Below, one piece after another: positions 2,526-62,848 of a stretch of 64,000 nucleotides of DNA. Under the pieces are notes generated by a model. That model had not been told where the DNA came from. It saw nothing but the letters and a program-made list of their open reading frames with translations, and searched no databases. Position numbers and translations under genes: made by a program. Position 1 is the first letter of the stretch; every line of letters starts with the position of its first letter. The stretch comes from an uncultured Acidobacteriota bacterium (GTDB taxonomy: Bacteria; Acidobacteriota; Polarisedimenticolia; Polarisedimenticolales; DASRJG01), in assembly GCA_964383585.1 (NCBI GenBank), contig CAYLHQ010000012.1:36714-100713 (forward strand), written 5' to 3'.

Positions 2526-3860
2526 GTGCGGGGCCGGTTCCGACGAAATTCGATGGAATCCTCGTCCGGCACGTCGGTTGCCTGGACCGGGGACGTGCTC
2601 ACGAAACGACTCCTCCACGCTGTCCTGCTCCTGTCCGCCATCCCCGCCGCGGCGGGAGAGCTTCCGCTCCTCGATCTCGCCGCCCTCCTCTCCGAGGCCG
2701 AGGCGTCGGCCCCCGCGCTCCGCGCCGCAGGGTCGCGCGTTCTCGCGGCCGAAACCCTCCCTGCGCGGGCGGAGGCCCTTCCCGATCCGATGGTCTCGTT
2801 TTCCCTCCAGAACGAGAGCCTCGAAACGTTCACGCTCGGCGATTCGCAAATGTCGAACGCGACCTTCACCTGGACGCAGGAGATCCCCTTCCCTGGAAAG
2901 CGGGCCCTCCGCGCCGAGGCGGCGCGGGCGGAAAGCGGCGTTGCCACGGCGGAGGCGGAGCGGATCCGACGCGAGATCCTCGCCGCAGTGAAGACGCTCT
3001 ACGTCGAACTCCACCGGATCCATCGCGTGCGCGGGCTCGTCGAGGAGAACCGCCGTCTCGTCGTCGCCCTGCGCGACGCCTCGCGGGCGCGCTTCGAGAC
3101 GGGGGAGGCCCCCCTCGAGGGGCCTCTCGGCGCCGGGGCCGAGATCGCGCGGATCGACGCCGAGATCGAAGATCTGGAGGGGCAACGGTCGGAGGCCGAG
3201 GCGGGTCTTACGCGTCTTCTCGGCAGGAGCGAGACGGACCGCTTCGGTCCCGCCGTCGCCGCGCCGGCGGTGGCCCCTTTCGATCCGGACGAGCTCCTGC
3301 GGGCCGCCGCCCTGCACGCGACCCGCGTCGGCGTTCTCCGCGCCGTCGAGCGGCGCGAGGAAGCGCGCATCGAATCCCTCAGGCGCGATCTCAAGCCCGA
3401 CTTCTCTTGGAGCGCCGGGTACGCCTACCGAGGAAGCCTCGACCCGATGGTGATGGGGATGTTCGGCGTCACGCTCCCCCTCTTCCGCGACCGGAAACAG
3501 GTTCAGGCGCTCGCCGGGGCCGAGCGCTCGCTCGAGGCCGTCCGTCACGAGGCGAAAGACGCCGCGCTCGAGGCGGAATCCTCGGTGCGCGAGGCACTCG
3601 CGCGCGCGAAAAGCGCCGAGGATCAGGCGCGGGTCTTCGAGGACGCCGTCCTCCCCCAGGCCCGCGCCGCCCTCGACGCCGCGACGGCCGCCTACACGAC
3701 CGGCCGCGTGGACTTCGCGACGATCCTCGGGTACGCCCGCGAGCTTCTGGCCGACGCGCGGCGGATCGAAGATCTCCGCGCTCGGCGCCTTGCCGCCCTC
3801 GCCCTGCTCGAGCCCAGCGTCGGGCGCGACCTCGTCCTGCCCGCGGGAGACCCGTCATGA
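2526..3860 (+). CDS. TolC-family outer membrane efflux protein (CusC/CzcC-like)
   Basis: 444-aa ORF with a signal-like N-terminus (LLHAVLLLSAIPAAAG) and two coiled-coil/beta-barrel repeats typical of outer membrane factor proteins. Its stop overlaps the next start (ATGA at 3857-3860). The start is uncertain (GTG 2526 or ATG 2553). Confidence 0.85.
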   Translation: MRGRFRRNSMESSSGTSVAWTGDVLTKRLLHAVLLLSAIPAAAGELPLLDLAALLSEAEASAPALRAAGSRVLAAETLPARAEALPDPMVSFSLQNESLETFTLGDSQMSNATFTWTQEIPFPGKRALRAEAARAESGVATAEAERIRREILAAVKTLYVELHRIHRVRGLVEENRRLVVALRDASRARFETGEAPLEGPLGAGAEIARIDAEIEDLEGQRSEAEAGLTRLLGRSETDRFGPAVAAPAVAPFDPDELLRAAALHATRVGVLRAVERREEARIESLRRDLKPDFSWSAGYAYRGSLDPMVMGMFGVTLPLFRDRKQVQALAGAERSLEAVRHEAKDAALEAESSVREALARAKSAEDQARVFEDAVLPQARAALDAATAAYTTGRVDFATILGYARELLADARRIEDLRARRLAALALLEPSVGRDLVLPAGDPS

Positions 3861-5119
3861 GCCCCCGCGGACGCAGCGTTCTCGTCGTCGTCTCGCTCGC
3901 CGTCCTCGTCGCCGTCGTCGCCCTCGCGTGGCTTACCCCGCGCGGGACGGCACAGCACCACGGTTCGGCGACGCAGTTCCACTGCCCGATGCATCCGCAG
4001 GTCGTGCAGGACCGCCCGGGGAAGTGCCCGATCTGCGCGATGGGTCTCGTTCCGGCCTCGCGAGTCGAAACCGAAGTGCCGCACGAGGGCGCGCACGGCC
4101 CGAAAGGGCTCGCGCGCGTGCGTCTGACGGAGGCGAAGGCGCGCCGGATCGGCGCGCGGTCGGTGCCGGTCGAACCCGCCCGCTTCGACCGGGTCGTGCG
4201 CGCCGCGGGAAACGTCGCGATCGACGAGACCCGCCTGCGGCAGGTCCACACGAAGACGGCGGGATGGGTGGAGAGGTTGTGGGCGAACGCGGTGGGAGAG
4301 CCCGTCCGACGCGGCGCGCCCCTCCTCGCGATCTACAGCCCCGAGCTGCTCGCCGCGCAGGAAGAGTTCCTCGTCGCGCTCCGGGCGAACGAGCGGCTCG
4401 CGGCGAGCGGCTCCGAGGAGGTTGCCGCTTCGGGGGACTCCCTCCTCGCCGCCGCGCGCAGCCGGCTGCGCCTGCTCGACATGACCGAGGACGAGATCGC
4501 GGCCCTGGAGAAGACGGGGGTTGCGTCCCGCACCGTCGTCGTTCCGTCCCCCCTCTCGGGGACGATCCTCTCGCGCGGCATCGCCGAAGGGGCGCGCGTC
4601 GAACCGGGGACGATGCTCCTCGAGGTCGCGGACCTCTCGAAGGTCTGGGTGCTCGCCTCCGTCTACGAGTACGAGTTGCCGTTCGTCCGGGAAGGCCAGG
4701 AGGCGTCGATGACCCTCCCTTACCTTCCGGGGCGCGAACATCGGGGGAAGGTGGCGAAGGTCTATCCGACCCTCGACTCGGCGACGCGGACCGCGACCGT
4801 GCGGATCGAGTTCACGAACCCGGACGGGTCGCTCAAGCCGGAGATGTACGCCGAGGTCCGCCTCGTCGCCGACCTCGGGGAGAGGCTCGCCGTCCCGACG
4901 GGGGCGGTGATGGAGACGGGAACGCGGAGCGTCGTGTTCGTCGACGAGGGGGACGGCGTCTTCACGCCGCGCGAGATCGCGGTCGGCCTCCGTCTTCCGG
5001 ACCGGGTCGAGGTGCTCTCCGGGCTCGAGCGTGGAGAACGGGTCCTCGCGGAGGGGAACTTCTTCGTCGATTCGGAGTCGAGGCTCCGCGCCGGGCTCGA
5101 GGCCGCGGCGGAGCGATGA
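3857..5119 (+). CDS. cusB: RND efflux membrane fusion protein, CusB-like, with an N-terminal heavy-metal-binding domain
   Basis: One TM helix is followed by FHCPMHPQVVQDRPGKCPICAMGL (the YHCPMHP...CPxCGM metal-binding motif). A barrel-sandwich/beta-barrel MFP body follows. ATGA overlaps occur at both ends (3857 and 5116). Confidence 0.85.
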   Translation: MSPRGRSVLVVVSLAVLVAVVALAWLTPRGTAQHHGSATQFHCPMHPQVVQDRPGKCPICAMGLVPASRVETEVPHEGAHGPKGLARVRLTEAKARRIGARSVPVEPARFDRVVRAAGNVAIDETRLRQVHTKTAGWVERLWANAVGEPVRRGAPLLAIYSPELLAAQEEFLVALRANERLAASGSEEVAASGDSLLAAARSRLRLLDMTEDEIAALEKTGVASRTVVVPSPLSGTILSRGIAEGARVEPGTMLLEVADLSKVWVLASVYEYELPFVREGQEASMTLPYLPGREHRGKVAKVYPTLDSATRTATVRIEFTNPDGSLKPEMYAEVRLVADLGERLAVPTGAVMETGTRSVVFVDEGDGVFTPREIAVGLRLPDRVEVLSGLERGERVLAEGNFFVDSESRLRAGLEAAAER

Positions 5120-8100
5120 TCGAGCGGATCATCGACTTCTCCGCGCGGCACCGCCTCCTGGTGCTGATGCTGACGGTCGTCGCCGTTCTGTTCGCGGTGC
5201 GCGCGATGCGCGAGGTCCCGCTCGACGCGATCCCCGATCTCTCGGACACCCAGGTCATCGTCTTCTCGAAGTGGGACCGTAGCCCCGACATCGTCGAAGA
5301 CCAGGTGACGTACCCCATCGTCACCTCCCTCCTCGGAGCGCCGGGCGTCAAGTCGATCCGTGGCTTTTCGGATTACGGCTTCTCCTACGTCTACGTGATC
5401 TTCGACGACGGGACCGACCCCTACTGGGCGCGGAGCCGGGTGCTCGAGTACCTGAGCGAGATCCTCCCGCGGCTTCCCGCAGGGGTGACGACGGAGCTGG
5501 GGCCGGACGCGACGGGGGTCGGCTGGGTTTACCAGTACGCGCTCGTCGACCCCGAAGGCCGCCACGACCCGGCAGACCTGCGATCCTTTCAGGACTGGAC
5601 GCTCCGGTACTGGCTCCAGGGTGTGGAAGGGGTCGCCGAGATCGCGTCGTTCGGCGGGTATCAGAGGCAATACCAGATCACGCTCCGTCCCGAAGCGCTC
5701 CTCGCGCGGAACGTCACCGTACCGCAGGTCGTCGAGGCGATCCGGAAGGGGAACGACGAGGTCGGGGCGCGGGTGCTCGAGCTTTCCGGCGCGGAGTACA
5801 TGGTGCGGGCGCGGGGGTACGCGCGATCGATCGAGGACTTCGAGAACCTCGTCGTGACCGCGGACGCTCGGGGGGTCCCCGTCCTCGTGCGCGACGTCGC
5901 GCGGGTCGGCGTGGGTCCCGACATGCGACGAGGGATCGGCGACCTCGACGGACGGGGGGACGTCGCGGGAGGGATCGTCGTCATGCGCCACGGGGAGAAC
6001 GCGCTCCGCGTGATCGAGCGCGTGAAGGCGAGGCTCGACGACGTGCGAGGCTCGCTTCCCGAGGGGGTGGAGATCGTCGCGACCTACGACCGGTCGGAGT
6101 TGATCGAGCGCTCGATCGACGTGCTGAAGAAGGAGCTGATCCTGGCGATGGTCGTCGTGAGCCTGGTCGTGCTCCTCTTCCTGTGGCACGTCCCTTCCGC
6201 GATCGTCCCGATCGTCACGATCCCGGTCTCGGTCTGCCTCGCCTTCATCCCGATGTGGGGGATGGGGATCACCTCGAACATCATGTCGCTCGCGGGGATC
6301 GCGATCTCGATCGGGGTCCTCGTTGACGGCGCGATCATCGAGGTCGAGAACGCCTACAACAAGATCCACCGGTGGCAGGCCGCTGGAGGGAAGGGGGACT
6401 TCCACGAGGTGCGCCTGGAGGCGCTCAAGGAGGTCGGGCCGGCGGTCTTCTTTTCCCTCCTCGTCATCACCGTGTCGTTCCTTCCGGTCTTCACCCTCGT
6501 CGATCAGGAAGGGCGGTTGTTCAAGCCGCTCGCCTACACGAAGACGCTGACGATGGCCCTCGCCGCGGTCCTCGCGACCACGCTCGACCCCGCGATGCGC
6601 ATGCTCTTCGCGCGGATCGAGCCGTTCCGGTTCCGGCCGCGAGTCCTGTCGAAGGCCGCGAGCGGTTTGTTCGTCGGGCGGTACCGCGCCGAGGAGGATC
6701 ACCCGATCAGCCGGCGGCTGATTCGGTGGTACGAGCCCGTCTGCCGCCTGGTCCTCGACTGGCCGAGGGCGACGATCGCGATCGCTCTCGCCCTTCTGCT
6801 GTCGACGATACCGGTGTACTTCTCCCTGGGCTCCGAGTTCATGCCTCCGCTCGACGAGGGGACGCTCCTGTACATGCCGACGACCCTCCCCGGGATTTCC
6901 GTCGCGGAAGCCGCGGCCATGCTCGAAGAGACGGGACGGCTCATCGCCGAGGTGCCCGAGGTCGCGAGCGTTCACGGGAAGGCGGGACGCGCCGATTCGG
7001 CGACCGACCCGGCGCCGTTGTCGATGATCGAGACGGTCGTCGTCTTGAAGCCGCGCTCGGAGTGGAGGTCGGTCGAGCGGTTCTACTCCGGCTTTCCGGA
7101 TTGGATGAAGGCCCCGTTCCGGCTCGTCTGGCGAGACCGGATTTCCCGAGAGGAGTTGGTCGCCGACCTCGACCGGCGCGTCCGCCTTCCGGGCGTCACC
7201 AATTCGTGGACGATGCCGATTCGCACGCGGATCGACATGCTGACGACGGGGATCCGGACGCCCGTCGGAATCAAGATCCTAGGACCGGACCTCGGTGAGA
7301 TCGAGCGGCTCGGCTCGGAGATCGAGTCGGTCGTCGCCGGGCTGAGCGGCACGCGAAGCGTCTTTGCCGAAAGGACCGCCGGCGGGTACTTCCTCGACTT
7401 CGACCTGAAGCGTGAGGCCCTCGCGAGGTACGGAATCGCCGTCGCGGACGCGCAGATGGTCCTGATGGCCGCCGTCGGGGGCGAGACGGTGACCACGACG
7501 ATCGAGGGGCGCGAGCGCTACACGGTGAGCGTCCAGTATCCGAGAGAACTGCGCGACAACGTCGAGGCGCTACGACGGGTGCTGGTCCCGGCCTCATCCG
7601 GTGTGCAGATCCCTCTCGAGCAGATCGCCGATCTCCGCTTCTCGACGGGCCCCGGGATGATCCGGAACGAGAACGGCCTCCTCGCGGGGTACGTTTACGT
7701 CGACATCTCGGAGTCCAACGTCGGCGGGTACGTGGCCCGTGCGAAGGAAGCGGTCGCGCAGGCGGTGTCGTTCCCTCCGGGCTATACCGCCGTCTGGAGC
7801 GGGCAGTACGAGAACATGCTGCGGGTGCGGGAGCGCCTGAAGCTCGTGATCCCGCTCACCTTGTTCCTCATCTTCCTCATTCTCTACATGAACACGCGCT
7901 CGGTGGTGAAGACGGGCATCGTCCTCCTCGCGGTTCCCTTCTCCCTCGTCGGTGCCGTCTGGTTCCTGTGGCTTCTCGACTACAACGTCTCGATCGCCGT
8001 CTGGGTGGGGATGATCGCCCTCATGGGCCTCGACGCGGAGACGGGCGTCTTCATGCTCCTCTTCCTCGATCTGTCGTACGAGCAGGCGGTGCGCGAGGGA

Positions 8101-8409
8101 AGGATGCGGAACCACCACGACCTTCGGGAGGCGATCGTCCACGGGGCCGTGAAGCGGATCCGGCCGAAGATGATGACCGTCCTCGCCGCCTTCGTGGGTC
8201 TCCTCCCGATCATGCTCTCCCAGGGGACCGGCTCCGACATGATGAAGCGCGTCGTCGCGCCGATGATCGGCGGCCTCGTCACGTCGTTCGTGCTGGAACT
8301 ACTCGTCTACCCGCCGCTCTACGAGATGTGGAAGCGGCAAAGGGGACATTCCGGTTTTTCTTTCCATTCTTCAAGCAGCGGTGAACCTCAGATCGCCGGG
8401 GCGCCTTGA
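5116..8409 (+). CDS. cusA: CusA/CzcA-family heavy-metal RND efflux pump
   Basis: The product reads co-linearly with E. coli CusA as I recall it: MIERIIDFS...DAIPDLSDTQVIVFSKW...DPYWARSRVLEYL...LGPDATGVGWVYQYAL...EGTLLYMPTTLPGIS. The last ~22 aa (RGHSGFSFHSSSSGEPQIAGAP) are encoded by the palindromic repeat at 8341-8439. Confidence 0.92.
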   Translation: MIERIIDFSARHRLLVLMLTVVAVLFAVRAMREVPLDAIPDLSDTQVIVFSKWDRSPDIVEDQVTYPIVTSLLGAPGVKSIRGFSDYGFSYVYVIFDDGTDPYWARSRVLEYLSEILPRLPAGVTTELGPDATGVGWVYQYALVDPEGRHDPADLRSFQDWTLRYWLQGVEGVAEIASFGGYQRQYQITLRPEALLARNVTVPQVVEAIRKGNDEVGARVLELSGAEYMVRARGYARSIEDFENLVVTADARGVPVLVRDVARVGVGPDMRRGIGDLDGRGDVAGGIVVMRHGENALRVIERVKARLDDVRGSLPEGVEIVATYDRSELIERSIDVLKKELILAMVVVSLVVLLFLWHVPSAIVPIVTIPVSVCLAFIPMWGMGITSNIMSLAGIAISIGVLVDGAIIEVENAYNKIHRWQAAGGKGDFHEVRLEALKEVGPAVFFSLLVITVSFLPVFTLVDQEGRLFKPLAYTKTLTMALAAVLATTLDPAMRMLFARIEPFRFRPRVLSKAASGLFVGRYRAEEDHPISRRLIRWYEPVCRLVLDWPRATIAIALALLLSTIPVYFSLGSEFMPPLDEGTLLYMPTTLPGISVAEAAAMLEETGRLIAEVPEVASVHGKAGRADSATDPAPLSMIETVVVLKPRSEWRSVERFYSGFPDWMKAPFRLVWRDRISREELVADLDRRVRLPGVTNSWTMPIRTRIDMLTTGIRTPVGIKILGPDLGEIERLGSEIESVVAGLSGTRSVFAERTAGGYFLDFDLKREALARYGIAVADAQMVLMAAVGGETVTTTIEGRERYTVSVQYPRELRDNVEALRRVLVPASSGVQIPLEQIADLRFSTGPGMIRNENGLLAGYVYVDISESNVGGYVARAKEAVAQAVSFPPGYTAVWSGQYENMLRVRERLKLVIPLTLFLIFLILYMNTRSVVKTGIVLLAVPFSLVGAVWFLWLLDYNVSIAVWVGMIALMGLDAETGVFMLLFLDLSYEQAVREGRMRNHHDLREAIVHGAVKRIRPKMMTVLAAFVGLLPIMLSQGTGSDMMKRVVAPMIGGLVTSFVLELLVYPPLYEMWKRQRGHSGFSFHSSSSGEPQIAGAP

Positions 8410-8439
8410 AGTATTGGAACAAAAAGCGGAATGTCCCCT
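8341..8439. repeat. AT-rich imperfect palindrome, AGGGGACATTCCG(C/G)TTTTT family; likely hairpin/terminator
   Basis: The left arm AGGGGACATTCCGGTTTTTCTTTCCATTCTTCAAG (8341-8375) pairs with the reverse complement of 8405-8439, AGGGGACATTCCGCTTTTTGTTCCAATACTTCAAG. The first 22 nt of the reverse complement of the right arm (AGGGGACATTCCGCTTTTTGTT) are identical to the outer arms of the 46778-46952 palindrome; the left arm has two substitutions in that stretch. Confidence 0.7.
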
Positions 8440-21814: not shown

Positions 21815-21948
21815 GCGTGATGTTCATCCTCCTCCCGGCCTCCCTGCTCTTCGCCCTGGGCGCGGTCCTCGTGTTCCTTTGGGCGGCCCGCTCCGGGCAG
21901 TACGACGACGTCGAGACCCCCGCCTCCCGCATCCTCGATGATGAATAG
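21811..21948 (+). CDS. ccoS: cbb3 oxidase maturation protein CcoS/FixS
   Basis: GTG 21811 overlaps the ccoI stop (GTGA). The translation (V)SVMFILLPASLLFALGAVLVFLWAARSGQYDDVETPASRILDDE matches the CcoS pattern. Confidence 0.7.
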   Translation: MSVMFILLPASLLFALGAVLVFLWAARSGQYDDVETPASRILDDE

Positions 21949-22010
21949 GGGACAGGTTACTCGTTTGTCGCAAAAAGGGACTTCTTGCGACAAATGAGTA
22001 ACCTGTCCCC
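21948..22010. repeat. palindrome GGGGACAGGTTACTCGTTTGTCGCAA / TTGCGACAAATGAGTAACCTGTCCCC (hairpin directly after ccoS)
   Basis: 26-bp arms (21948-21973 and 21985-22010) with one mismatch and an 11-nt loop. It starts on the last base of the ccoS stop codon. It shares the GGGGACA start with the other palindromes, and no U-tract follows it. Confidence 0.65.
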
Positions 22011-26892: not shown

Positions 26893-29800
26893 TCACGGGA
26901 TCGTCGCCGTCCCCCCCGCCTCGATGACGACGGTCCCGCGCGGATTCCCGTCGAGCTCGACGGCGTAGACCCCCGGCGGCAGGTACCGGAGGAGCCACGC
27001 CGCTCCCAGCTCGGGGGTCTCGATCCGCTGGATCGCCCCGCCCGAGGTCCGGGAGAGGACGCCCCCCCAGTCGAGCCCCGCCGCGTCCCGGACCACCGGC
27101 GTCCCCTTCGACCCCTGGGGCCTCGCCAGGAGGAGTTGCCCGCAACGGACCGCGGTGACCGTGACTTCGAGGTCTCCGTCCTCCGGGACGACGAGCTCGG
27201 TCCTCCCGATCCCGAAGCCGTCGACCCGGAAGATCACCTCCGCCGGACCGGGTTCGAAGGGGCATTCCTGGACCCCCGAGACGAAGCCGTAGCTGTGGCG
27301 GTTTTGCCCTCCCCCCGCGACGCACTCGAGCGTCCCGGGAAGTCCGGGTGGGTCGCTCTTCAGGGTGACGCGCACGCGCGGGCCCGGAGTCGGCGTCAAC
27401 TCGACCGAGAACGCGTTCGATCCTTCCCCGATCTCGACCCGCCCCTCGTGCGTTTCGTAACGCTTCGCTCCGACCTGAATCGCGTGTGGACCTGGACGGG
27501 AGAGGAAGATCCGAGCGCGTCCCGAAGCGTCCGTGCTCCCGAACCCGCACCCTCCGTCGCTCACCGAAACGTCGATGTCGGGCTCGAACAGGTTCCCCCA
27601 CGAGCGGCGACTCATCGACGCCATGCACTTCGCCCCCTCGGGCGTCAAGAAGAGCGACGCGTTGGGAACGGGCCCTCCCGACTTCCTGTCCCGGACGAGG
27701 ACGTCGACGAGAACGGTCGAAACGGCGAGGTCGACTCGGACGAGCCCCTCCTGCGGGAGGTCGACCTGCTTGTCCGCCCGACCCTCCGGGCCGATCGCGG
27801 AGAACATGTAGGTCCCCGGTTTCTTGTTCTCGAGACGCCACCGACCGGCCGCATCGGTCTCGACGCCTCCGTCGGACGCCATTCCCCCGTCCCGAAGCTC
27901 GGAGACGGCCACGATGTAATTCGCGAGCCCCCGTCCGTCCTTCGAAACGGTGCCCTCGACCGCAGGCCCGTCCCGCAACTCGACGACCGTCGTACGCCCC
28001 GCAACGATCTCCACGCCCTTCTCGGCTCCCGGGGGAAGCGAGGCCGCCCCCTTTCCCGCCGCGAGGTCGGAGAAGAGAACGCTCGTCCGGCCGGCGACGG
28101 CGGCGGAGTGCCCGACCCCGCGACCGTCCCGAACCGACACCCAGCGGGTGGGAGGCAGGTCCACAGGGAACCTCGCCTCGACCGCACCCGCGGGTGCGAG
28201 CGTCAGGACGATCTCGGAATCTCCCCTGGCCAGGACATCGGGCTCGACGGCCGGCCCGAAACCCGGGGCGGTCGCGACGAGGGACTGCCGCGGCCCCGGC
28301 TCGGCGGCGACGGTGAACTTCCCATCCGCGCCCGTCATCCCGACGGCGATGGCGCGCTCGAGCGAGACGGAACCGGAGTCGCGGACCAGTCTCACGGTCG
28401 CCCCCGCCTTGGGCACCCCCGACGGATCGAGCACCGTTCCGCGGAGCCCGTGAGCGCGCTCGAGCGTCAGGACGATCCCGGAACGGGTTTCTCCGGCCTC
28501 GACCGTCACCGCGAGCGGCTCTCCTGTCTGGTACCCCTGTGCGCTCGCGATCAGGCCGAGCCTTCCCGCTTCGGCGTCGGAAATCCGGAATGTCCCCTCC
28601 GGCGTCGCGACCGTCCGTGAAGCGAGCGCCCCCGATCCGGCGAGAGCGAACACCTCGGCGCCGGGAACCGGTTCCCCGGACTCCCCCTCGACGAGGCCCT
28701 CGAGGATCACGCCCCGATCGAGCTCGATGCGCACCGAACCGACCGAGAGGTCGAGATCGTCCCGGGTCGCGGTGCGATACCCCTCGGCCGAGACCTCGAG
28801 GCGGAGCCGGCCGGTTTCCGGGAACCCGGCGAGTTCCGCGCGGCCCGAGGAGTCGGTGAATCCCTCGACGTTGAAGACGAGCCCCGCAGAGCCGCTGCCG
28901 AGCACGCGCGCCCCTTCGACCGGGGCTCCCGAGCGGTCGACGACGTCGACGACGACCGCGGCCCCCCGCTCCACGCGGAGCACGCCCAGGTCCTCCGTCG
29001 TTCCCGCCTCCGGGGCATCCCCGCGCAGGCGCAGGGGAAGCCCCGGCTTCGGGCGGACGTAGAGATCCCACTCCGAGGAAAGGAAGGGCCCCAGCCGAAG
29101 CGAACCGTCCCCCGAGCAGGGCGAGTTCAGGGTCGCCCCGGGAAGGAGCCTCGAAAGCCACGCCGATTCCCGGTCCCGTACCGTGAGCGCCCCGCGGCAA
29201 CCGACCGGCCGGTCGTCCTCGTCGACGAGGCGAGCGACGAGGCGCACCGGCCGTGCGGGACGGAGGACGACCGTCTCCTCGGGGGGCTTCGGAAACGAAC
29301 CCGCCGCGACGCCGAGCGGATCGTCCCACCCTCCCGCAGCGAGGAGGACCGGTCCTTCGGCGTCGGCGGGGAAGGAAAACGTCCCGTCGGCCGAGGTTTC
29401 GCCCTCGAGCGGTGCCGAAGGGCCGCACGTCCACGCGCCGATCGGATCGACACCGGACGGAACTCGTTGCGCGGGCGGAGGGTCCTCGGGGTACTTCCCC
29501 CAGATCCGCACGGCGATCGATTCGACCGGAAGCCCCTCGGCATCGACAACCTTCCCCTGGACCCTCCGCGGCGGACGCCATGCCGCCGACACCGCGTGCA
29601 ATCCGTGCCCGAGGGGGCCGAGGTCGGCCCGGCAGGTCCATCCGTCCTTCACGCGGACGAGGTCGATCCGGTAGCGTCCCGCCGGGACTGGCCCGAGCGA
29701 AACGCGAGGGAGCTCCTCGTTCTTCGTCGGGGGGGCGAGCGGCTCGCGCGCGGCGAGGGCGTTTCCTCCCGGCCCGTACAGCCGCGCCTCCATGCCGTCG

Positions 29801-40440: not shown

Positions 40441-40526
40441 AAAAGGGGACTGGCACCTTTTCCGGTCGCCGGAAAAGGTGCCAGTCCCCTTTTTCACACC
40501 GGAAAAAGTGCCAGTCCCCTTTTTCA
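40441..40526. repeat. AT-rich perfect palindrome (GGGGACTGGCACCTTTTCC family) plus a tandem extra half-copy; likely bidirectional terminator
   Basis: AAAAGGGGACTGGCACCTTTTCCGG (40441-40465) pairs with CCGGAAAAGGTGCCAGTCCCCTTTT (40469-40493). A second right-arm copy, CCGGAAAAAGTGCCAGTCCCCTTTTT, lies at 40499-40524. The element lies in the ~100-bp gap between the convergent stops of fpr (40439) and the TonB-dependent receptor (40539). Confidence 0.75.
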
Positions 40527-40538
40527 CAGTCCCCATTC

Positions 40539-42611
40539 TCACCACCCCCATTTCGTCACGAGCCGCACCGACCGGCTCTCCATCGGGTGGAAGTGGACGT
40601 CCTCCACCCCCTCCTCCGGTTCCCCGGGGAGGCGCGAGGCGTAGAAGTACTCGATATCGCTGTCGTCCCGGTCGAAGAGGTTGAAAACCTCGACCGCGAG
40701 CGACACGTCGCGCGCGAACCGCCATCCGGCTCGGAGCGACGCGAGGGATGTCGAGCCCGAGCGGACCGAGCCGTCCTCGATCAGCGGGCGCGGACCGAAG
40801 TAGCGCCACCGGATCGCACCGAAAAACCCGCGTGGGGAATCGAACGCCGCTCCCGCCGACACGGCCGAGGTCAGCGCCCCGGGGATGAACTCCCCGGCCG
40901 AATCGTCGTCGGTGAAACGGCCGCGGGTCCACGCGGCGTCGAGCTCGAGGGTGAGCCAGGGAGCGGGCCGCCAGTGATTGGCGATCTCGACGCCCGTGCG
41001 CCGGCTCGGCCGGCTCGCCTCGGTCCCGCCCGCGTCCCCGACGAAGAGAAGTTCCGAGTCGAGCTCTAGGACGAAGAACGTGACGCTCGTCTGCAGCCCA
41101 TCGAGTGCGGAGGTACGAAACCCGACGTCGGCCCCGGTCGCGCGCACCAGGGGATCGACCGGCTCGGCGGGCTCGCCCGAACGCGGATCGACCCGGATCG
41201 TCGCGCCCCGCGCGTCGTTGCTGTGGTAGCCGGCGCCGAGATTGACGTAGACCTCGGTGCGAGACCACGGCCCGAAGACGAGCGAGAGTTTCGGACTCAG
41301 GAGAGAGTCCGACCGGCTCCCGGAGTTCTCCGCCAAGTCGCTCGAGACGTCGGCCCGGAACACGTCGGCCCGGAGGCCGGCGCGGGTCCGGAACCAGGCG
41401 TTCCACTCGATTTCCGCGTCCACGAACGCGGCGCCGAGAAGTTGCTCGACGTCGTCGGCGCGGACCGTGTCCCGAATTGCGCCGCCTGCGGTATCGAAGA
41501 GGCCGTTGTCGATGAAATCCGCACGCGCGTCGAGGCCCCAGTTCCACCGAACGGCGCGTCCGCCCGGACCCGCGACGTACCCTCGCGCGAATCGCGCGCC
41601 GAGGGCTGTTCGGCGGTCCCTCTGAAGGAACTCGTCTCCTTCCGCCGGGTCGTCGAGGAAGTAGGTGAAGTTCGAGAGGAGGTCGAGGGAGTAGCGGAGG
41701 ACGTACCCCGAAAGCGTCGTCGTCGAGCCGACGTTCCGGGTCCGCCAGGACGCGGAGAGGCTGTACCGCCCCGATTCCCCGCCGAGATCGTCGTCGAGTG
41801 AGCCGAAACGGCCGACGAGCCCCTGCTCGACGGCGCGCCTCGGGATCTGGTCGGTCGCGTCCCACTCCCCGTCGTACGCCATCGCGGTCACCGTGAGCCC
41901 ACGGTCGGCCTCCCCCCGCGTCCAGCGGACGACGCCGTTCCAGCGACGGAAGTCGTCGGGGCGCTCCCACGGGCCGTCGTAGTGGGAGAACTCGACCGCG
42001 CCGAGGACGGTCCCTTCGCCGATCGGGAGCGAGCCCGCCGCGAGCGCGCGCGCGTAGTCGTCGGTCCCGGCGACGAGATCCACGATCGGCCGATCGAGCG
42101 CGCGGACGAGATCGAAATCGACCGATCCGGCTGCCGAGAAGTCCCCCACCTCCGCCCAGTACGGCCCCTTCCGGAACCGCGCGCGCTCGACGAGTTCCGG
42201 GATGACGAAGTTGAGGTCGGCGTATCCCTGGCCGTGGGCGTGCGTCGGGAGGTTCACCTGCATCCCGTCGAGCGTCACGTGAAAGTCGGTGCCGTGGTCC
42301 AGGTTGAACCCGCGCAGGAAGTACTGGTTTCCCTTTCCGCCCCCGCTGTGCTGCGTTGCGATCGTCCCGGGAACGGTTTCGACCAGTTCCCCGGGGCGCA
42401 GAAGGGGTCTCCGTGCGAGGTCTTCCTTGCCGGTCACCCCCTCGGAGCCCGAGGTCGCGATCCCGACAAGATCGTCGGCCCGGGCCGTGACCTCCACGTC
42501 CTCCGGTGTTTCGGGAGCCGGGAGGGGTTCTTCGCTTCTCGTTTCCTCCTGTGCGAAAAGACAGACGGAGCAGGCCATGGCGAGCGCCATCGAAGTGGCC
42601 GCCGTTTTCAT
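40539..42611 (-). CDS. TonB-dependent outer membrane receptor
   Basis: Signal peptide MKTAATSMALAMACSVCLFAQ. The plug domain reads ...PGTIATQHSGGGKGNQYFLRGFNLDHGTDF... A long beta-barrel ends in the aromatic C-terminus ...VTKWGW. ATG 42641 is an alternative start. Confidence 0.85.
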   Translation of the reverse strand: MKTAATSMALAMACSVCLFAQEETRSEEPLPAPETPEDVEVTARADDLVGIATSGSEGVTGKEDLARRPLLRPGELVETVPGTIATQHSGGGKGNQYFLRGFNLDHGTDFHVTLDGMQVNLPTHAHGQGYADLNFVIPELVERARFRKGPYWAEVGDFSAAGSVDFDLVRALDRPIVDLVAGTDDYARALAAGSLPIGEGTVLGAVEFSHYDGPWERPDDFRRWNGVVRWTRGEADRGLTVTAMAYDGEWDATDQIPRRAVEQGLVGRFGSLDDDLGGESGRYSLSASWRTRNVGSTTTLSGYVLRYSLDLLSNFTYFLDDPAEGDEFLQRDRRTALGARFARGYVAGPGGRAVRWNWGLDARADFIDNGLFDTAGGAIRDTVRADDVEQLLGAAFVDAEIEWNAWFRTRAGLRADVFRADVSSDLAENSGSRSDSLLSPKLSLVFGPWSRTEVYVNLGAGYHSNDARGATIRVDPRSGEPAEPVDPLVRATGADVGFRTSALDGLQTSVTFFVLELDSELLFVGDAGGTEASRPSRRTGVEIANHWRPAPWLTLELDAAWTRGRFTDDDSAGEFIPGALTSAVSAGAAFDSPRGFFGAIRWRYFGPRPLIEDGSVRSGSTSLASLRAGWRFARDVSLAVEVFNLFDRDDSDIEYFYASRLPGEPEEGVEDVHFHPMESRSVRLVTKWGW

Positions 42612-42687
42612 CAATGTGAACACGCATCCCCCTTCCCGCATCGCGCGGGCGTTTCCTCTGGACCGCGTCTTGTGGATGGGTCGGAGA

Positions 42688-43161
42688 TCAGGAAGGTGGG
42701 GCGCGGGGAGATCGGTGGAGGGCGAGCGGGACGCCACCCGGCCGAAACAGAACCGTCGGAGTTGCAATCGAGAGTGGGCGTTCCGGAGGCGTGGCCCCCG
42801 TGTCCTCGAAGCCGGATTCTCCCGGGGGCGCCGCGCCCGGAAGGAAGCGTGCGGACTTGCGGGGGTCGTCCCGGTCTGCGGGGGGCGACCAGGGATCGGG
42901 CCTCCCCTCGTCGAAGCCGCCGCGATCGGCGTGAGTGTGACCGGCGCCTCCGTGCTCATGGAACCCGAGATGGAGGTGGTCGTGGACGACGTGCGCGGAG
43001 CCGTTCCGGTGATGGTGGGGACGATCTTCACCCGTTGCACCCAGCCAGAAGAGACAAACGAACCCGAGCAAACCCGAGACGCTCCGCTCGGGGAAAAAAT
43101 GGGGACTGGCACCTTTTCCGAAGACCCTCCCGGAAAAGGTGCCAGTCCCCATTTCTCTCAT
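42688..43161 (-). CDS. hypothetical His-rich protein (start uncertain)
   Basis: The ORF has high GC3 by eye. It encodes a hydrophobic segment (LLGFVCLFWLGATG) followed by HHHRNGSAHVVHDHLHLGFHEHGGAGHTH. ATG 43161 overlaps the upstream stop (ATGA) but would put the 43099-43152 palindrome inside the coding region. The next in-frame start is TTG 43071. Confidence 0.35.
   Translation of the reverse strand: MREMGTGTFSGRVFGKGASPHFFPERSVSGLLGFVCLFWLGATGEDRPHHHRNGSAHVVHDHLHLGFHEHGGAGHTHADRGGFDEGRPDPWSPPADRDDPRKSARFLPGAAPPGESGFEDTGATPPERPLSIATPTVLFRPGGVPLALHRSPRAPPS
43099..43152. repeat. perfect palindrome of the GGGGACTGGCACCTTTTCC family
   Basis: ATGGGGACTGGCACCTTTTCCG (43099-43120) pairs perfectly with CGGAAAAGGTGCCAGTCCCCAT (43131-43152). 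It starts 6 nt downstream of the sulfatase-like gene stop. Confidence 0.75.
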
Positions 43162-45336: not shown

Positions 45337-46779
45337 ATGGAAATCTTGGCGGTCCTTCTCCTCGTCGTCTCGGCGATCATCCTGTTCGCCACCGAAGCGC
45401 TGCGCGTGGACGTGGTGGCGATCCTCATCCTGGTGGCCCTCGCCCTCTCCGGTCTCATCGCTCCCGAGGAGGCGCTTTCCGGGTTCTCCAATCCCGCGAC
45501 GGCAACCGTCGCCGCGATGTTCGTCCTCTCCGCCGGACTCCGTCACACCGGGCTCGTGGACGCCTTCGCGGACGGGGTCGATGCGCTGCTCGGCCGGAGC
45601 GCGATTCTCGTGACGCTCGGTCTCATGATCGCCGTCGGTCTCGTCTCCGCGTTCATCAACAACACGGCTGCAGTCGCGGTCCTGATCCCGATCGTGATCG
45701 GACTTTGCAGGCGCCATGCCTGGTCCCCGTCCCGCTTCCTGATGCCCCTCTCGTTCATGGGGCAGATCGGCGGCGTGTGCACCCTCGTCGGGACCTCGAC
45801 GAACATCCTCGTCTCGGACATCGCGCGGCGGTCCGGGATGGAACCGTTCGGGATGTTCGAGTTCTCCGCGCTCGGCCTTTGCTTCGCCGGCGTTGGCTTC
45901 GTGTACCTCGCCCTGGTGCCGTCGTTGCTGCTCCGGAGGAACGGCGACGCCCCTCCGCAGCCGCTCGCGGCCCGCTACGAGCTGGGCCAGTACCTCACCG
46001 AGATCGAAGTGGGACCGGATTCCGAGCTCGTCGGACAGCGGCTCGCCGACACACAGATCGGTGAACGCCTCGGCCTCGAGGTCCTCGAAGTGATCCGGGG
46101 AGGGAGACCGGTCTGGATTCCCGCTCCGGAACAGGGTCTCGAGGCAGGCGACGTGCTCGTCGCGCGTGCTCCGATCTCGAACCTTCTCGACGCCCAGCAG
46201 GCGATGGGGCTCCGCTTCAAGCGGAACATCGAGATGAGCGAGTCGCGACTGCAGGGTTCGGGAGTCGTCCTCGTCGAGGCGCTGGTCGCGCCGGATTCTC
46301 GACTTGTCGGGAAGACGCTCCAGGAGGCCCAGTTCCGGAGGAGGTACCGCTGCCAGGCAATCGCGATCCGCCACCACGACCGGCTCGAGGCCGGAACGAT
46401 CGGGAAGGTCCGGCTCGCGGTCGGCGACGTCCTGCTGCTTCAGGGGTACCGCCGGGACATCGAGGCGCTCGCCGCCGGTCTCGCAGTGTTGACTCTCGAG
46501 GAGATCGCGGCGCCCGAGGTCCCATGGCTCAACAAGGGGCTCGCCGTCGGCGCAATCTCGGGAGCCGTCGCGTTCGCGACGCTCGGCGTGGCGCCGATCC
46601 TCGTGACCGCCATGGCAGCCGCCGCGTTCCTCGTCATCGCGCGCGTGCTGACGATCGAGCAGGCCTACCAGGCGATCGATTGGAAGGTGATCTTCCTCCT
46701 CGCCGGGGTGATCCCTCTCGGGATCGCGCTCGAGAGCAACGGGGCGGCCGGGCTCCTCTCTCGGGGGGTGATGTTTTAG
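45337..46779 (+). CDS. SLC13/DASS-family permease with two TrkA-C domains, apparently C-terminally truncated
   Basis: The N-terminal transport half is ~205 aa, followed by two TrkA-C-like domains (...GQRLADTQIGERLGLEVLEVIRGG..., ...GKTLQEAQFRRRYRCQAIAIRHHD...). Only ~90 aa of the second transport half remain before TAG 46777-79, which sits on the first bases of the 175-bp palindrome. Confidence 0.75.
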   Translation: MEILAVLLLVVSAIILFATEALRVDVVAILILVALALSGLIAPEEALSGFSNPATATVAAMFVLSAGLRHTGLVDAFADGVDALLGRSAILVTLGLMIAVGLVSAFINNTAAVAVLIPIVIGLCRRHAWSPSRFLMPLSFMGQIGGVCTLVGTSTNILVSDIARRSGMEPFGMFEFSALGLCFAGVGFVYLALVPSLLLRRNGDAPPQPLAARYELGQYLTEIEVGPDSELVGQRLADTQIGERLGLEVLEVIRGGRPVWIPAPEQGLEAGDVLVARAPISNLLDAQQAMGLRFKRNIEMSESRLQGSGVVLVEALVAPDSRLVGKTLQEAQFRRRYRCQAIAIRHHDRLEAGTIGKVRLAVGDVLLLQGYRRDIEALAAGLAVLTLEEIAAPEVPWLNKGLAVGAISGAVAFATLGVAPILVTAMAAAAFLVIARVLTIEQAYQAIDWKVIFLLAGVIPLGIALESNGAAGLLSRGVMF

Positions 46780-46952
46780 GGGACATTCCGCTTTTTGTTT
46801 CAGAAACGATAGGGGGGGAAGGGAAAAAGGGGACAGGCACCTTTTCGGGAGAACCTTGCGAAATGAACGCAGCGGCCCTCCCCGAAAAGGTGCCTGTCCC
46901 CTTTTTCCCTTCCCCCCCTATCGTTTCTGAAACAAAAAGCGGAATGTCCCCT
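46778..46952. repeat. ~175-bp composite near-perfect palindrome (both repeat families nested); bidirectional terminator-like
   Basis: The left arm 46778-46850 (AGGGGACATTCCGCTTTTTGTTTCAGAAACGATAGGGGGGGAAGGGAAAAAGGGGACAGGCACCTTTTCGGGAG) is the reverse complement of 46879-46952 apart from one position near the loop. It spans exactly from the permease stop to the ilvE stop. Confidence 0.8.
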
Positions 46953-47832
46953 AAACGGCGACGTACTCGACCTTGACGCCGTCCCGCACGCGCAGGCGGC
47001 GGAAGTCGTCGAGGAGTCGCTTCGTCACGGGCCCGGGCACTCCCGCTCCCACACGGCGTCCGTCCACCGCGATCACGGGGACGATCTCAGCGCCGGTGCC
47101 GGTCATGAAGACCTCCTCGGCGTTGTAGAGATCATGCAACCCCACCACGGTCTCGGCGGTCTTGAAGCCGGCGTCGCGCGCGAGCTCGAGCACCGCGCCT
47201 CGCGTGATCCCCGAAAGCGCCCCCTGCATGGTGTCGGGGGTCTTGACCCAGCCGTCGCTCACGAAGAAGAGGTTGTCGGCGGTGCACTCCGCCACGTACC
47301 CCTGATGGTTGAGCATGATCGCCTCGAGCGCTCCCGACCGCTTGGCGTCGAGCTTGCCGAGGATGTTGTTCAGGTAGTTCAGGGACTTGATCCGCGGGTC
47401 GATCGAGTCGTTCGGGATCCGTCGCACGCTCGCCGTCACGAGCGCGATCCCCTTCTCGTAGAACTCCTTCGGGTAAAGCGCGATCTCGGCGACGATGATC
47501 ACGATGGTCGGCCGCTTGCACTTCGCCGGGTCGATCCCGAGATCCCCGTCTCCACGCGAGACCACGAGCCGGATGTACGCATCCCTCTTCTCGTTGGCGG
47601 CGACGGTGTCGCAGACGGCAGCCGTCATCTCCTCGGGGCTCAGGGGGATCTCGAGCGCGATCGTCTTCGCCGACCGGTACAGACGGTCGATGTGTTCCTT
47701 CAGCCGGAAGACGTTCCCGTCGTAGACCCGGATTCCTTCGAACACGCCGTCCCCGTACAGGAACCCGTGGTCGAACACGGAGACCTTGGCGTCCTCCCTC
47801 GCGTACAGCTTGCCGTCGACGTAGATCTTCAC
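46951..47832 (-). CDS. ilvE: branched-chain amino acid aminotransferase (class IV)
   Basis: (V)KIYVDGKLYAREDAKVSVFDHGFLYGDGVFEGIRVY...IKSLNYLNNILGK... are IlvE signatures. GTG 47832 follows GAGGAGG. Confidence 0.9.
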   Translation of the reverse strand: MKIYVDGKLYAREDAKVSVFDHGFLYGDGVFEGIRVYDGNVFRLKEHIDRLYRSAKTIALEIPLSPEEMTAAVCDTVAANEKRDAYIRLVVSRGDGDLGIDPAKCKRPTIVIIVAEIALYPKEFYEKGIALVTASVRRIPNDSIDPRIKSLNYLNNILGKLDAKRSGALEAIMLNHQGYVAECTADNLFFVSDGWVKTPDTMQGALSGITRGAVLELARDAGFKTAETVVGLHDLYNAEEVFMTGTGAEIVPVIAVDGRRVGAGVPGPVTKRLLDDFRRLRVRDGVKVEYVAV

Positions 47833-62097: not shown

Positions 62098-62792
62098 GCG
62101 TCTTCCTCGTCACCGGGGCGGCGCGCGGGCTCGGCCTCGAGATGGTCCGGCAACTTCTCGAGTCGGGGCACAGGGTCGTTGCCTGCCCCCGTCGCGCCGA
62201 GTCGTGCGGCCTCGACGCCCTTTCGGTCGCCCACGCGTCGGCGCTCTGGATCGTCCCCATGGACGTGACCGACGGGCCCTCGGTGCGGGAGGCGGCACGC
62301 CGGGTCTCGTCGCGCGTTCCCCACCTCGACGTGCTGGTCAACAACGCCGGGGTTCTCCATCGCGGAGAACCTTCGGTCGAGGCGCTCGATTTCTCGGGTC
62401 TCGAAGATGCCTACCGCGTGAACGCCCTCGGGGCGCTCCGCGTCACGGCGGGGTTCCTCCCCCTCCTCCGGAAGGGAGCGGGCAAGAGGATCGTCAACGT
62501 CTCGTCGCTCATGGGCTCGATCGAGGACAATGCGAGCGGCGGCGCCTACGGGTACCGGATGTCCAAGGCGGCGCTCAACATCGCGACGAAGAATCTCGCG
62601 ATCGAGTTGAAGGGCGATGGGTTCGTCGTCGTTGCGATGCACCCGGGGTGGGTCCGCACACGGATGGGAGGGGAACGGGCGCCGCTCGACATCGAGCCCG
62701 CCGTCCGGGAGCTGCTGGCGACCGCCCTCTCGGCCGGACCCGACCGGAGCGGCGGGTTCTACGGCCCGGGAGGAACGAGGTTGCGTTGGTAA
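62094..62792 (+). CDS. short-chain dehydrogenase/reductase (CsgA/C-factor-like subgroup)
   Basis: GTGA overlap with the previous SDR. Motifs are VFLVTGAARGLGLEMVRQL, NNAG and YRMSKAALN. Confidence 0.8.
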   Translation: MSVFLVTGAARGLGLEMVRQLLESGHRVVACPRRAESCGLDALSVAHASALWIVPMDVTDGPSVREAARRVSSRVPHLDVLVNNAGVLHRGEPSVEALDFSGLEDAYRVNALGALRVTAGFLPLLRKGAGKRIVNVSSLMGSIEDNASGGAYGYRMSKAALNIATKNLAIELKGDGFVVVAMHPGWVRTRMGGERAPLDIEPAVRELLATALSAGPDRSGGFYGPGGTRLRW

Positions 62793-62848
62793 GAAAAGGG
62801 GACTGGCACCTTTTCACGGCTGTGAAAAGGTGCCAGTCCCCTTTTCTT
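62791..62848. repeat. perfect 27-bp-arm palindrome of the GGGGACTGGCACCTTTTC family; bidirectional terminator-like
   Basis: AAGAAAAGGGGACTGGCACCTTTTCAC (62791-62817) pairs with GTGAAAAGGTGCCAGTCCCCTTTTCTT (62822-62848) around a 4-nt loop. It fills the entire gap between the convergent stop codons (TAA 62790-92 and TGA complement 62848-50). Confidence 0.8.

Follow-up and report, generated by a model that had tools for sequence, protein, structure and literature searches.

A 64-kb stretch of DNA from an uncultured Acidobacteriota bacterium (referred to here as the window; G+C content, 69%), which forms part of a 275-kb JGI contig, carries a permease gene of the SLC13/CitMHS family and a convergent ilvE gene that meet at a 181-bp palindrome (46775-46955), the longest inverted repeat of the window. 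In an ungapped inverted-repeat search, its two 75-nt arms, separated by 31 nt, proved to be complementary at every position (100%; Table 1). An initial annotation of the sequence had correctly recognized a long inverted repeat here, though with arms of 73 to 74 nt and one mismatch beside the loop, whereas the actual arms are free of mismatches. It had also placed the two ends of the structure within the TAG stop codons of the permease open reading frame (ORF) and ilvE; both codons are indeed covered, and the palindrome reaches 2 nt beyond them on either side. RNA folding of the region gave -170.6 kcal/mol, compared to -72.9 +/- 5.5 kcal/mol for shuffled sequences (z = -17.8). The closest named relative of the window is the uncultured Acidobacteriota metagenome-assembled genome (MAG) GCA_964628935.1.

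Table 1. Coordinates of the locus, of its alignment to the relative L123, and of related hairpins and transposase genes (window positions unless another sequence is named; a slash within a sequence marks a junction; TIR, terminal inverted repeat)
Feature	Position	Strand	Remarks
SLC13/CitMHS permease remnant with two TrkA_C domains	45337-46779	+	480 aa; Pfam
Left deletion junction	46770-46779	+	GTG AT/G TTT TAG; 336 bp gone between 46772/46773
Palindrome, left arm	46775-46849		TT-TAG-GGGACATTCCGCTTTTTGTTTCAGAAACGATAG-(G-rich)-AAAAAGGGGACAGGCACCTTTTCGGG; homologous to left arm of L123 element
Outer (family-1) terminal box GGGGACATTCCGCTTTTTGTT	46779-46799	+	Mirror copy at 46931-46951, minus strand
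Inner (family-2) hairpin	46824-46906		AAAAA-GGGGACAGGCACCTTTTCGGG, 31-nt loop, CCCGAAAAGGTGCCTGTCCCC-TTTTT
Loop, 31 nt, AGAACCTTGCGAAATGAACGCAGCGGCCCTC	46850-46880		Reverse-complement orientation relative to loop of L123 element
Palindrome, right arm	46881-46955		Exact reverse complement of left arm
Right deletion junction	46951-46956		CCCCTA/AAC(GG); 1304 bp gone between 46952/46953
ilvE, branched-chain amino acid aminotransferase	46951-47832	-	293 aa; Pfam Aminotran_4, NCBIfam PRK08320 (440 bits)
Alignment block, permease	46500-46772		L123 3387-3659; 93% identity
Alignment block, absent from window			L123 3660-3995; 336 bp, 112 codons, in frame
Alignment block, element	46773-46952		L123 3996-4207
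Alignment block, absent from window			L123 4208-5511; 1304 bp, MFS gene and 53-bp spacer
Alignment block, ilvE	46953 onward		L123 5512 onward
Simple family-1 hairpin	8341-8439		Same termini, no inner family-2 hairpin; arms 86% complementary
Third GGGGAC-headed hairpin type (GGGGACAGGTTACTC..., GGGGACAGGTTACTCGTTTGTCGCAAAAAG)	21948-22010		30-nt arms, 93%; 3-nt loop
Family-2 hairpin and extra half copy	40441-40523		Downstream of NAD_binding gene
Family-2 hairpin	43097-43154		Downstream of sulfatase gene
Family-2 hairpin	62791-62848		Perfect 27-nt arms
TIR-flanked RAYT-like Y1 gene	L073 5463-6358		
TIR-flanked RAYT-like Y1 gene	L129/L130 1387-2289		
TIR-flanked RAYT-like Y1 gene	L131 1454-2349		
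TIR-flanked RAYT-like Y1 gene	L132 1352-2204		
TIR-flanked RAYT-like Y1 gene	L133 1267-2243		

Composite structure of the palindrome

Each arm of the palindrome joins an outer box, GGGGACATTCC, to an inner box, GGGGACAGGCACC, and a TAG stands at each end of the element. The outer motif, GGGGACATTCCGCTTTTTGTT, has five matches in the window at three or fewer mismatches, where none is expected, including matches at 8342 and 8438, in agreement with its earlier reported presence at 8341-8439. The inner motif, GGGGACAGGCACCTTTTC, has nine matches in the window, where 0.03 is expected. The proposal of the initial annotation that two motif families can be joined in one element is thus well founded, since both are found in each arm and the composite recurs at other loci (see below). 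The inner hairpin consists of a 21-bp stem with A-tract and T-tract flanks, such that TTTTT is present on both strands, but encloses a loop of 31 nt; with its A-tract, stem, and T-tract it resembles a bidirectional intrinsic terminator in shape, and we regard this as its predicted role. No match to the window was retrieved from Rfam at gathering scores, and a permissive search yielded sub-threshold matches to generic hairpins (miRNA precursors) only.

Truncation of the permease

Comparison with homologs confirmed the earlier suspicion that the permease gene is truncated. The Pfam CitMHS match of its product, which is accompanied by the two TrkA_C domains, spans positions 1 to 275 of the 336 in the profile. 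Among the 119 best other database homologs, almost all are 587 to 600 aa long, and the closest of them (60 to 88% identity) measure 591 to 594 aa, compared to 480 aa in the window; only P0033 (338 aa, labelled "partial") and P0035 (564 aa) are clearly shorter than about 575 aa. None of the closest homologs stops at the equivalent position. The other member of its 90% cluster, P0121, is 93% identical and full length (601 aa as called, which corresponds to 592 codons plus an upstream start). The homology of the window protein to its relatives ends at about residue 478, after which it reads Met-Phe-stop, with 112 residues absent. While the first repeat retains the SNN/SNT hairpin motif (as INNTAAV), only about 90 aa of the second repeat are left, and these lack the MSNNA motif. 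In alignments to SLC13 proteins of solved structure, the absent residues fall in the C-terminal transport repeat, where the DASS fold has its second hairpin and its last helices. In this fold, as seen in VcINDY, the second of the hairpins that bind substrate and ions comes from the C-terminal repeat, and because that hairpin is lost, the remnant is probably inactive. A relative-rate count assigned 18 amino acid changes to the window branch and 6 to the branch of the relative (12 and 3 under a strict criterion), whereas the same count in four neighboring control genes gave 33 and 24 in total; this excess is at most suggestive of relaxed constraint on the window permease.

The ancestral locus and the changes in the window

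The relative that encodes P0121 (contigs L122 to L125), whose permease is 93% identical to that of the window, preserves a longer arrangement, in which a sulfatase gene, a 592-codon permease gene, a 208-bp imperfect composite, a convergent MFS gene (MFS_3/MFS_1, 416 aa), a 53-bp spacer, ilvE, pdxT, and pdxS follow one another. The element in L123 starts in the TAG of the permease gene, ends in the TAG of the MFS gene, and reads TAG-GGGACATTCCGCTTTTTGTTTCAAAGACGATAGG...GGGGGACTGGCACCTTTTCGGG-loop-CGAAAAGGTGCCTGTCCCC...CGAAAAGCGGAATGTCCCC-TAG. Orthologous loci without the element were found in L003 (88%) and L006/L007 (74%); in these too the MFS gene lies between the permease gene and ilvE, and in L003 the permease and MFS genes overlap by CTAG. 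The element is therefore polymorphic for presence, being found in the window and in L122 to L125 and absent from L003 and L006. The spacer between the MFS gene and ilvE in L003 includes a run of 10 N (3686-3695).

These loci bear directly on the earlier proposal that the insertion of the element, or a deletion associated with it, had removed about 350 bp from the 3' end of the permease gene. The loss itself stands, at 336 bp. Insertion into the permease gene does not fare as well; since in the relative a composite of this family follows immediately on the TAG of an intact 592-codon permease, the element was most likely not inserted into that gene, and the truncation most likely goes back to a deletion beside a resident copy.

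Comparison of the window with L123, in which a global DNA alignment gave the breakpoints, established four changes: a deletion in the permease gene, a deletion on the side of the MFS gene, symmetrized arms, and an inverted loop. At the left junction, the final codon (Phe) of the ancestral permease and its TAG stop have survived. The loss of the MFS gene on the ilvE side had been overlooked by the initial annotation; that gene is present in three related genomes. A search of the rest of the window for the MFS gene and for the permease tail found no trace of either. As a result of the right deletion, the stop codon of ilvE in the window is the TAG of the element, where L003 and L123 have a TGA. 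The ilvE orthologs of both these relatives are likewise 293 aa long, indicating that the window ilvE is full length. In the window palindrome, both arms are similar to the left one of the L123 element, and the 23-nt G-rich expansion of the L123 right arm is absent from them. The window loop aligns better to the L123 loop as its reverse complement, with CCGCTGCGTT common to both; the orientation is that of the JGI contig alone, as unitigs of k = 31 cannot settle it.

A recurrent family of composite elements

A metagenome scan, among whose matches the metagenome of the window itself did not figure, recovered composite arms on three further contigs (L126, L127, and L128) with unrelated flanks, from which we conclude that the composite is not a one-off nesting. 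It is a recurrent unit of about 180 to 210 bp, of which copies with identical arms recur. The composite in L126 is perfect but for one extra half-unit. L127 (1-132) and L128 (1-120), both from metagenome Ga0316622, do not differ in their 87-nt arms and have a loop in common, through which they overlap; they appear to be the two ends of one composite element, in which case the Ga0316622 assembly also broke in the palindrome. Six of the seven composite ends read TA/GGGGAC, so that the neighboring ORF takes its TAG stop from the element. The terminal tetranucleotides are TTAG in the window, CTAG in L123, ATAG in L126, and GTAG in L127, with none at L128, so that only TAG is common to them. The window element is 74% identical to the L123 copy (3998-4211) and 74% identical to a copy from an unrelated locus, while copies at unrelated loci reach 79%. 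Given that the genes flanking the element are 86 to 93% identical between the window and the relative, the 74% identity at the same site suggests that the element family turns over or homogenizes faster than its surroundings.

In total, six element loci are found within the window, and its GGGGAC-headed hairpins are all intergenic, mostly at gene 3' ends. At 40445 and 43102, the family-2 copies, which have short loops and likewise consist of an A-tract, a stem, and a T-tract, were scored as terminator-like on both strands by a terminator scan. A search of the literature for the motif strings returned primer coincidences only.

We also scanned the species-representative genomes (596 Gb) for GGGGACATTCCGSTTTT, the 17-nt stem of the outer box. 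Among the matches listed, which did not include the source genome of the window, inverted pairs were present in the Acidobacteriota MAGs CAYGWQ (at least 16 loci), CAZVOE, and CALZKF, as well as in MAGs of Woeseiaceae and Steroidobacteraceae (Steroidobacterales, Gammaproteobacteria). By our estimate, the lone matches in unrelated taxa are about as many as chance would produce for a 17-mer in 596 Gb. A REP (repetitive extragenic palindromic)-like stem common to two phyla is unusual.

Association with RAYT-like Y1 transposases

A motif screen of the retrieved DNA identified one ORF resembling a REP-associated tyrosine transposase (RAYT), in L073, which comes from a Polarisedimenticolaceae MAG. 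Its product matches Y1_Tnp (E = 2.4e-16), and its best NCBIfam match is NF047646, REP-associated tyrosine transposase, at 77.3 bits versus a cutoff of 80. On both sides of the gene lie perfect TIRs of 37 nt, TTCGGGGACAGGCACCTTAACCCGGGTTTCGGGGACA, that contain GGGGACAGGCACCTT. Its homologs at 60 to 83% identity are all bracketed by TIRs of 37 to 41 nt: L129 to L131 have TIRs of the form TAGTTTCGGGGACAGGCAC...GGGGACA (41 nt and 98% in L129 and L130; 40 nt and 95% in L131), and L132 and L133 have related GGGGAC TIRs. The form TAGTTTCGGGGACAGGCACC...GGGGACA is common to L073 and L129 to L131 over a length of 37 to 41 nt. Each TIR comprises two GGGGAC boxes and an outer TAG, as does an arm of the composite, and the inner box GGGGACAGGCACC of the window palindrome lies within the TIRs of Y1 transposase genes of related Acidobacteriota. 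L130 belongs to the MAG CALZKF, which also has outer-type hairpins (L017, L048, and L103). The neighboring genes are common to L129, L130, and L131, which suggests a vertically inherited, single-copy RAYT-like locus.

Di Nocera, De Gregorio & Rocco (2013; PMC3733652) noted that REP termini often supply TAG stops and that RAYT-like genes in species without GTAG REPs have long flanking TIRs sharing the sequence GGGGWSAS. They named these units "TIRtrons" and the enzyme "TIRYT," recognized a distinct Acidobacteria group, and observed that the TIRs of TIRtrons form repeat families. The GGGGWSAS box is matched at 8 of 8 positions by the inner GGGGACAG and by the hairpin at 21948, and at 7 of 8 by the outer GGGGACAT and the solo family-2 GGGGACTG. 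As in TIRtron-derived families, the copies occur as intergenic singles, dimers, and clusters, with six loci in 64 kb and many in related MAGs, and the same box is present in the TIRs of a RAYT-like Y1 gene, as seen here in related genomes only. A point of difference is that the available part of PMC3733652 does not describe a two-box foldback of about 180 to 210 bp with perfect arms of 75 to 88 nt. Because the TIRs of the Y1 genes hold the inner box, two GGGGAC boxes, and an outer TAG, our verdict, drawn from sequence comparison, is that the element should be classed as a new member of the REP/REPIN-like, GGGGWSAS/TIRYT-type repeats.

The resemblance extends to the REP/REPIN-RAYT systems, accounts of which are attributed to Bertels and Rainey in 2011, Nunvar et al. 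in 2010, and Ton-Hoang et al. in 2012. These are reportedly, like the present family, non-autonomous, extragenic, noncoding inverted doublets that form long hairpins, are tied to a single-copy, vertically inherited Y1 transposase, and have termini that often provide a TAG stop. In contrast, the present element has no conserved GTAG head, with only TAG in common, its units are far longer than REPs of 20 to 40 nt, and the sharing of one 17-nt stem between two phyla is unusual for REPINs. Bacterial interspersed mosaic elements (BIMEs) of Escherichia coli are mosaics of palindromic unit types and linker motifs between convergent genes; the window element is likewise a mosaic of palindromic unit types in such a position, but the sequences are different, and its units are nested and symmetric, whereas those of BIMEs alternate in tandem. 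Correia/NEMIS and other bacterial MITEs (miniature inverted-repeat transposable elements) depend on DDE transposases and generate a true target duplication. The present family resembles them in being small and noncoding, with TIRs, many copies in different flanks, presence/absence polymorphism (L123 versus L003), positions at TA, and a predicted capacity to carry terminators, but differs in that its linked enzyme is a Y1/HUH transposase. A Tn3-type or IS630-type MITE (GGGG-starting TIRs, TA duplication) was considered as well; no 5-bp duplication was seen, the TA merges with the palindrome, and the idea was dropped once the TIR-flanked Y1 genes had been found.

Origin of the perfect palindrome

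We consider it fairly probable that the palindrome is a resident REP/REPIN-like copy whose flanks were deleted and whose arms were symmetrized. The element family would most likely be mobilized in trans, as single-stranded hairpin DNA, by a Y1/HUH transposase of the TIRYT-like kind. At this locus, the most economical cause would be replication template switching in the quasi-palindrome, to which three clues point, namely, the similarity of both arms to the left arm of L123, the extension of the palindrome 2 nt into its flanks, and the inverted loop. The nascent strand, having folded back or switched strands at a stalled fork, would have made the right arm by copying the left one and, after ...CCCCTAAA, might have re-annealed at the AAA of the ilvE end through a 3-nt microhomology. 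The left flank reads GTTTTAG, with the reverse complement CTAAAAC, and the ancestral ilvE end reads ...GGTCAAACGG. A single such step would yield both the perfect right arm and the 2-nt palindromic extension into the flanks; it would also do away with the former right arm together with the MFS gene and its spacer (1.3 kb) and turn the ilvE TGA into TAG. The inter-strand version further predicts an inverted loop. The 336-bp deletion in the permease gene could be due to a further switch or to a separate event. Any present role of the element would be limited to that of a hairpin 3' end common to the remnant and ilvE, or of a bidirectional terminator between them.

A precedent may be found in quasipalindrome-templated mutagenesis, said to have been described by Ripley in 1982 and by Dutra and Lovett in 2006, in which an imperfect palindrome is reportedly made perfect by arm copying. 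The likeness lies in the copying of one arm from the other and in the short microhomology at the return point. In classical cases only a few bases are altered, whereas the return proposed here would be 1.3 kb away, with the deletion of a gene.

Several observations weigh against this account of a resident, symmetrized REP-like copy. One event does not explain everything, since microhomology is lacking at the left deletion, which moreover does not abut the element. The window copy is no closer to the L123 copy (74%) than to the unrelated-locus copy (74%), which makes sequence similarity uninformative as a criterion of orthology; the orthology of the element accordingly depends on its position and on the retained GTTy-TAG. 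As to the link to a transposase, a search for Y1 transposase motifs, which of this genome covered the 64-kb window alone, gave no hit, and the outer box GGGGACATTCC occurs as a TIR at none of the transposase genes examined. The predicted terminator role of the inner hairpin is weakened by its atypically long loop. The substitution excess in the permease is, by our own estimate rather than a computed test, not significant relative to the control genes. Finally, the connection of the arms through the 31-nt loop, like the orientation of that loop, comes from one assembly.

The equality of the two 74% values also lends itself to a different history, in which a single deletion of about 1.85 kb, reaching from the 3' end of the permease gene through the former element and the MFS gene to the end of the spacer, was followed by the insertion of a fresh symmetric copy at TA/TAG. 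This would be insertion in the sense of the initial annotation, whose idea it would favor if true. It accommodates the perfect-arm copies elsewhere (L127/L128), the fact that same-site copies are no more alike (74%) than copies from different sites (74 to 79%), the almost invariable TA/TAG at composite ends, and flanks of the form TTTA/.../TAAA, as expected after insertion into TTTAAA with a TA duplication. A TA is present at the six composite ends mentioned above, but the short hairpins have no constant flank, and the empty site of L003 differs by a 9-nt indel; moreover, because TA is self-complementary, a TA duplication is indistinguishable from an extension of the palindrome. Under replacement, the incoming copy would also have had to hit the very site that a related copy had occupied before. 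The GTTT before the TAG matches the ancestral permease end, GTTC, at three of four positions, as opposed to two of four for the ilvE spacer, and the window loop is closest to that of L123. We therefore regard replacement as unlikely, and the retained GTTy before the TAG favors retention of the resident copy.

The possibility that the palindrome or the permease-ilvE join is chimeric, and that the true genome resembles L123, deserves mention in view of the poor assembly of long perfect inverted repeats, a concern raised with the initial annotation. Logan contigs from SRR12686701 (k = 31) that are 100% identical to the window do break within the palindrome, with L002 ending at 46804 and L121 starting at 46926. 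However, given the inverted repeat at 46775-46955, these are the last and first positions of unique canonical 31-mers, and both deletion junctions (46772/46773 and 46952/46953) lie inside these unambiguous contigs, which break exactly at the predicted repeat boundaries. A second assembler thus supports both junctions as real. SRR12686701 is probably the same sample as the window, which makes this support independent of the assembler and not of the sample. The flanks are the syntenic neighbors expected from relatives, the 480-aa gene is also found on contigs of 50 to 200 kb and 0.2 to 1 Mb, and, as noted above, the window holds no displaced MFS gene or permease tail. The misassembly concern is largely answered in this way, apart from the loop join and its orientation, on which short k-mers are silent, and an assembly artifact appears very improbable. 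That the 480-aa protein is instead a normal short form of its transporter family is scarcely credible: the intact ORF stays in frame up to the usual Phe-stop of the family, with a low overall ratio of nonsynonymous to synonymous substitution rates versus the relative (0.096), but the length distribution of its closer homologs, its full-length cluster mate, and the loss of the last helices and the second hairpin from the DASS fold all contradict it.

Implications

The 480-aa "di/tricarboxylate transporter" of the window MAG should be annotated as a probable pseudogene, and the MFS transporter of its relatives is absent from this locus. The locus provides a clean natural example, complete with an outgroup, of a REP-like quasi-palindrome becoming a perfect long palindrome, with the loss of neighboring genes and the donation of stop codons. 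It also brings two abundant, hitherto undescribed hairpin motifs of uncultured Acidobacteriota from marine or sediment habitats into the GGGGWSAS/TIRYT class; the stem of one motif is also found in Woeseiaceae and Steroidobacteraceae. Current views are not overturned by these findings, and the locus shows genome decay of an ordinary sort next to a repeat of a kind already known. It is improbable, in our judgment, that the element is instead an active agent that, through its hairpin or a Y1 transposase, makes precise flank deletions fusing neighboring ORFs onto its TAG (as with ilvE), regenerates itself as a perfect palindrome, and belongs to REPIN-like systems that spread across phyla while being thought strictly vertical; the last part of this idea derives from the occurrence of the 17-nt stem in both Acidobacteriota and Steroidobacterales.

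Other hairpin-associated loci

The hairpin at 21948-22010 sits between two same-strand genes. A gene for a TonB-dependent receptor (about 40539-43112, minus strand) lies between the family-2 hairpins at 40441-40523 and 43097-43154; at 7790-7850 of the 93% relative L122, one hairpin stands between the NAD_binding gene and the sulfatase gene, without the receptor gene. This pattern is, as judged from the two sequences, an apparent gain or loss of the receptor gene exactly at a hairpin. Inverted pairs of GGGGACATTCCGSTTTT were seen in the Woeseiaceae MAGs L041, L049, L052, L068, L074, L088, and L091 and in the Steroidobacteraceae MAGs L026, L085, and L113; in L052 and L068 a GNAT gene lies between two such hairpins 600 bp apart. 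A comparison of the TonB receptor and the GNAT gene of L052 with integron attC-like cassettes was rejected, as the hairpins are at intergenic 3' ends and neither an integrase nor core sites were found there. On inspection, the sequence TGGCAC did not qualify as part of a sigma-54 promoter, there being no TTGC at the correct spacing. Lone copies of the 11-mer GGGGACATTCC, followed by G/C and then by T-rich sequence, occur at 28597 (minus strand), 32539 (plus strand), and 50678 (minus strand) within long ORFs of high G+C content at third codon positions, whereas, by our estimate, chance alone would account for about 0.03 occurrences of the 11-mer; one of these copies is near the 5' end of a GntR-aminotransferase gene.

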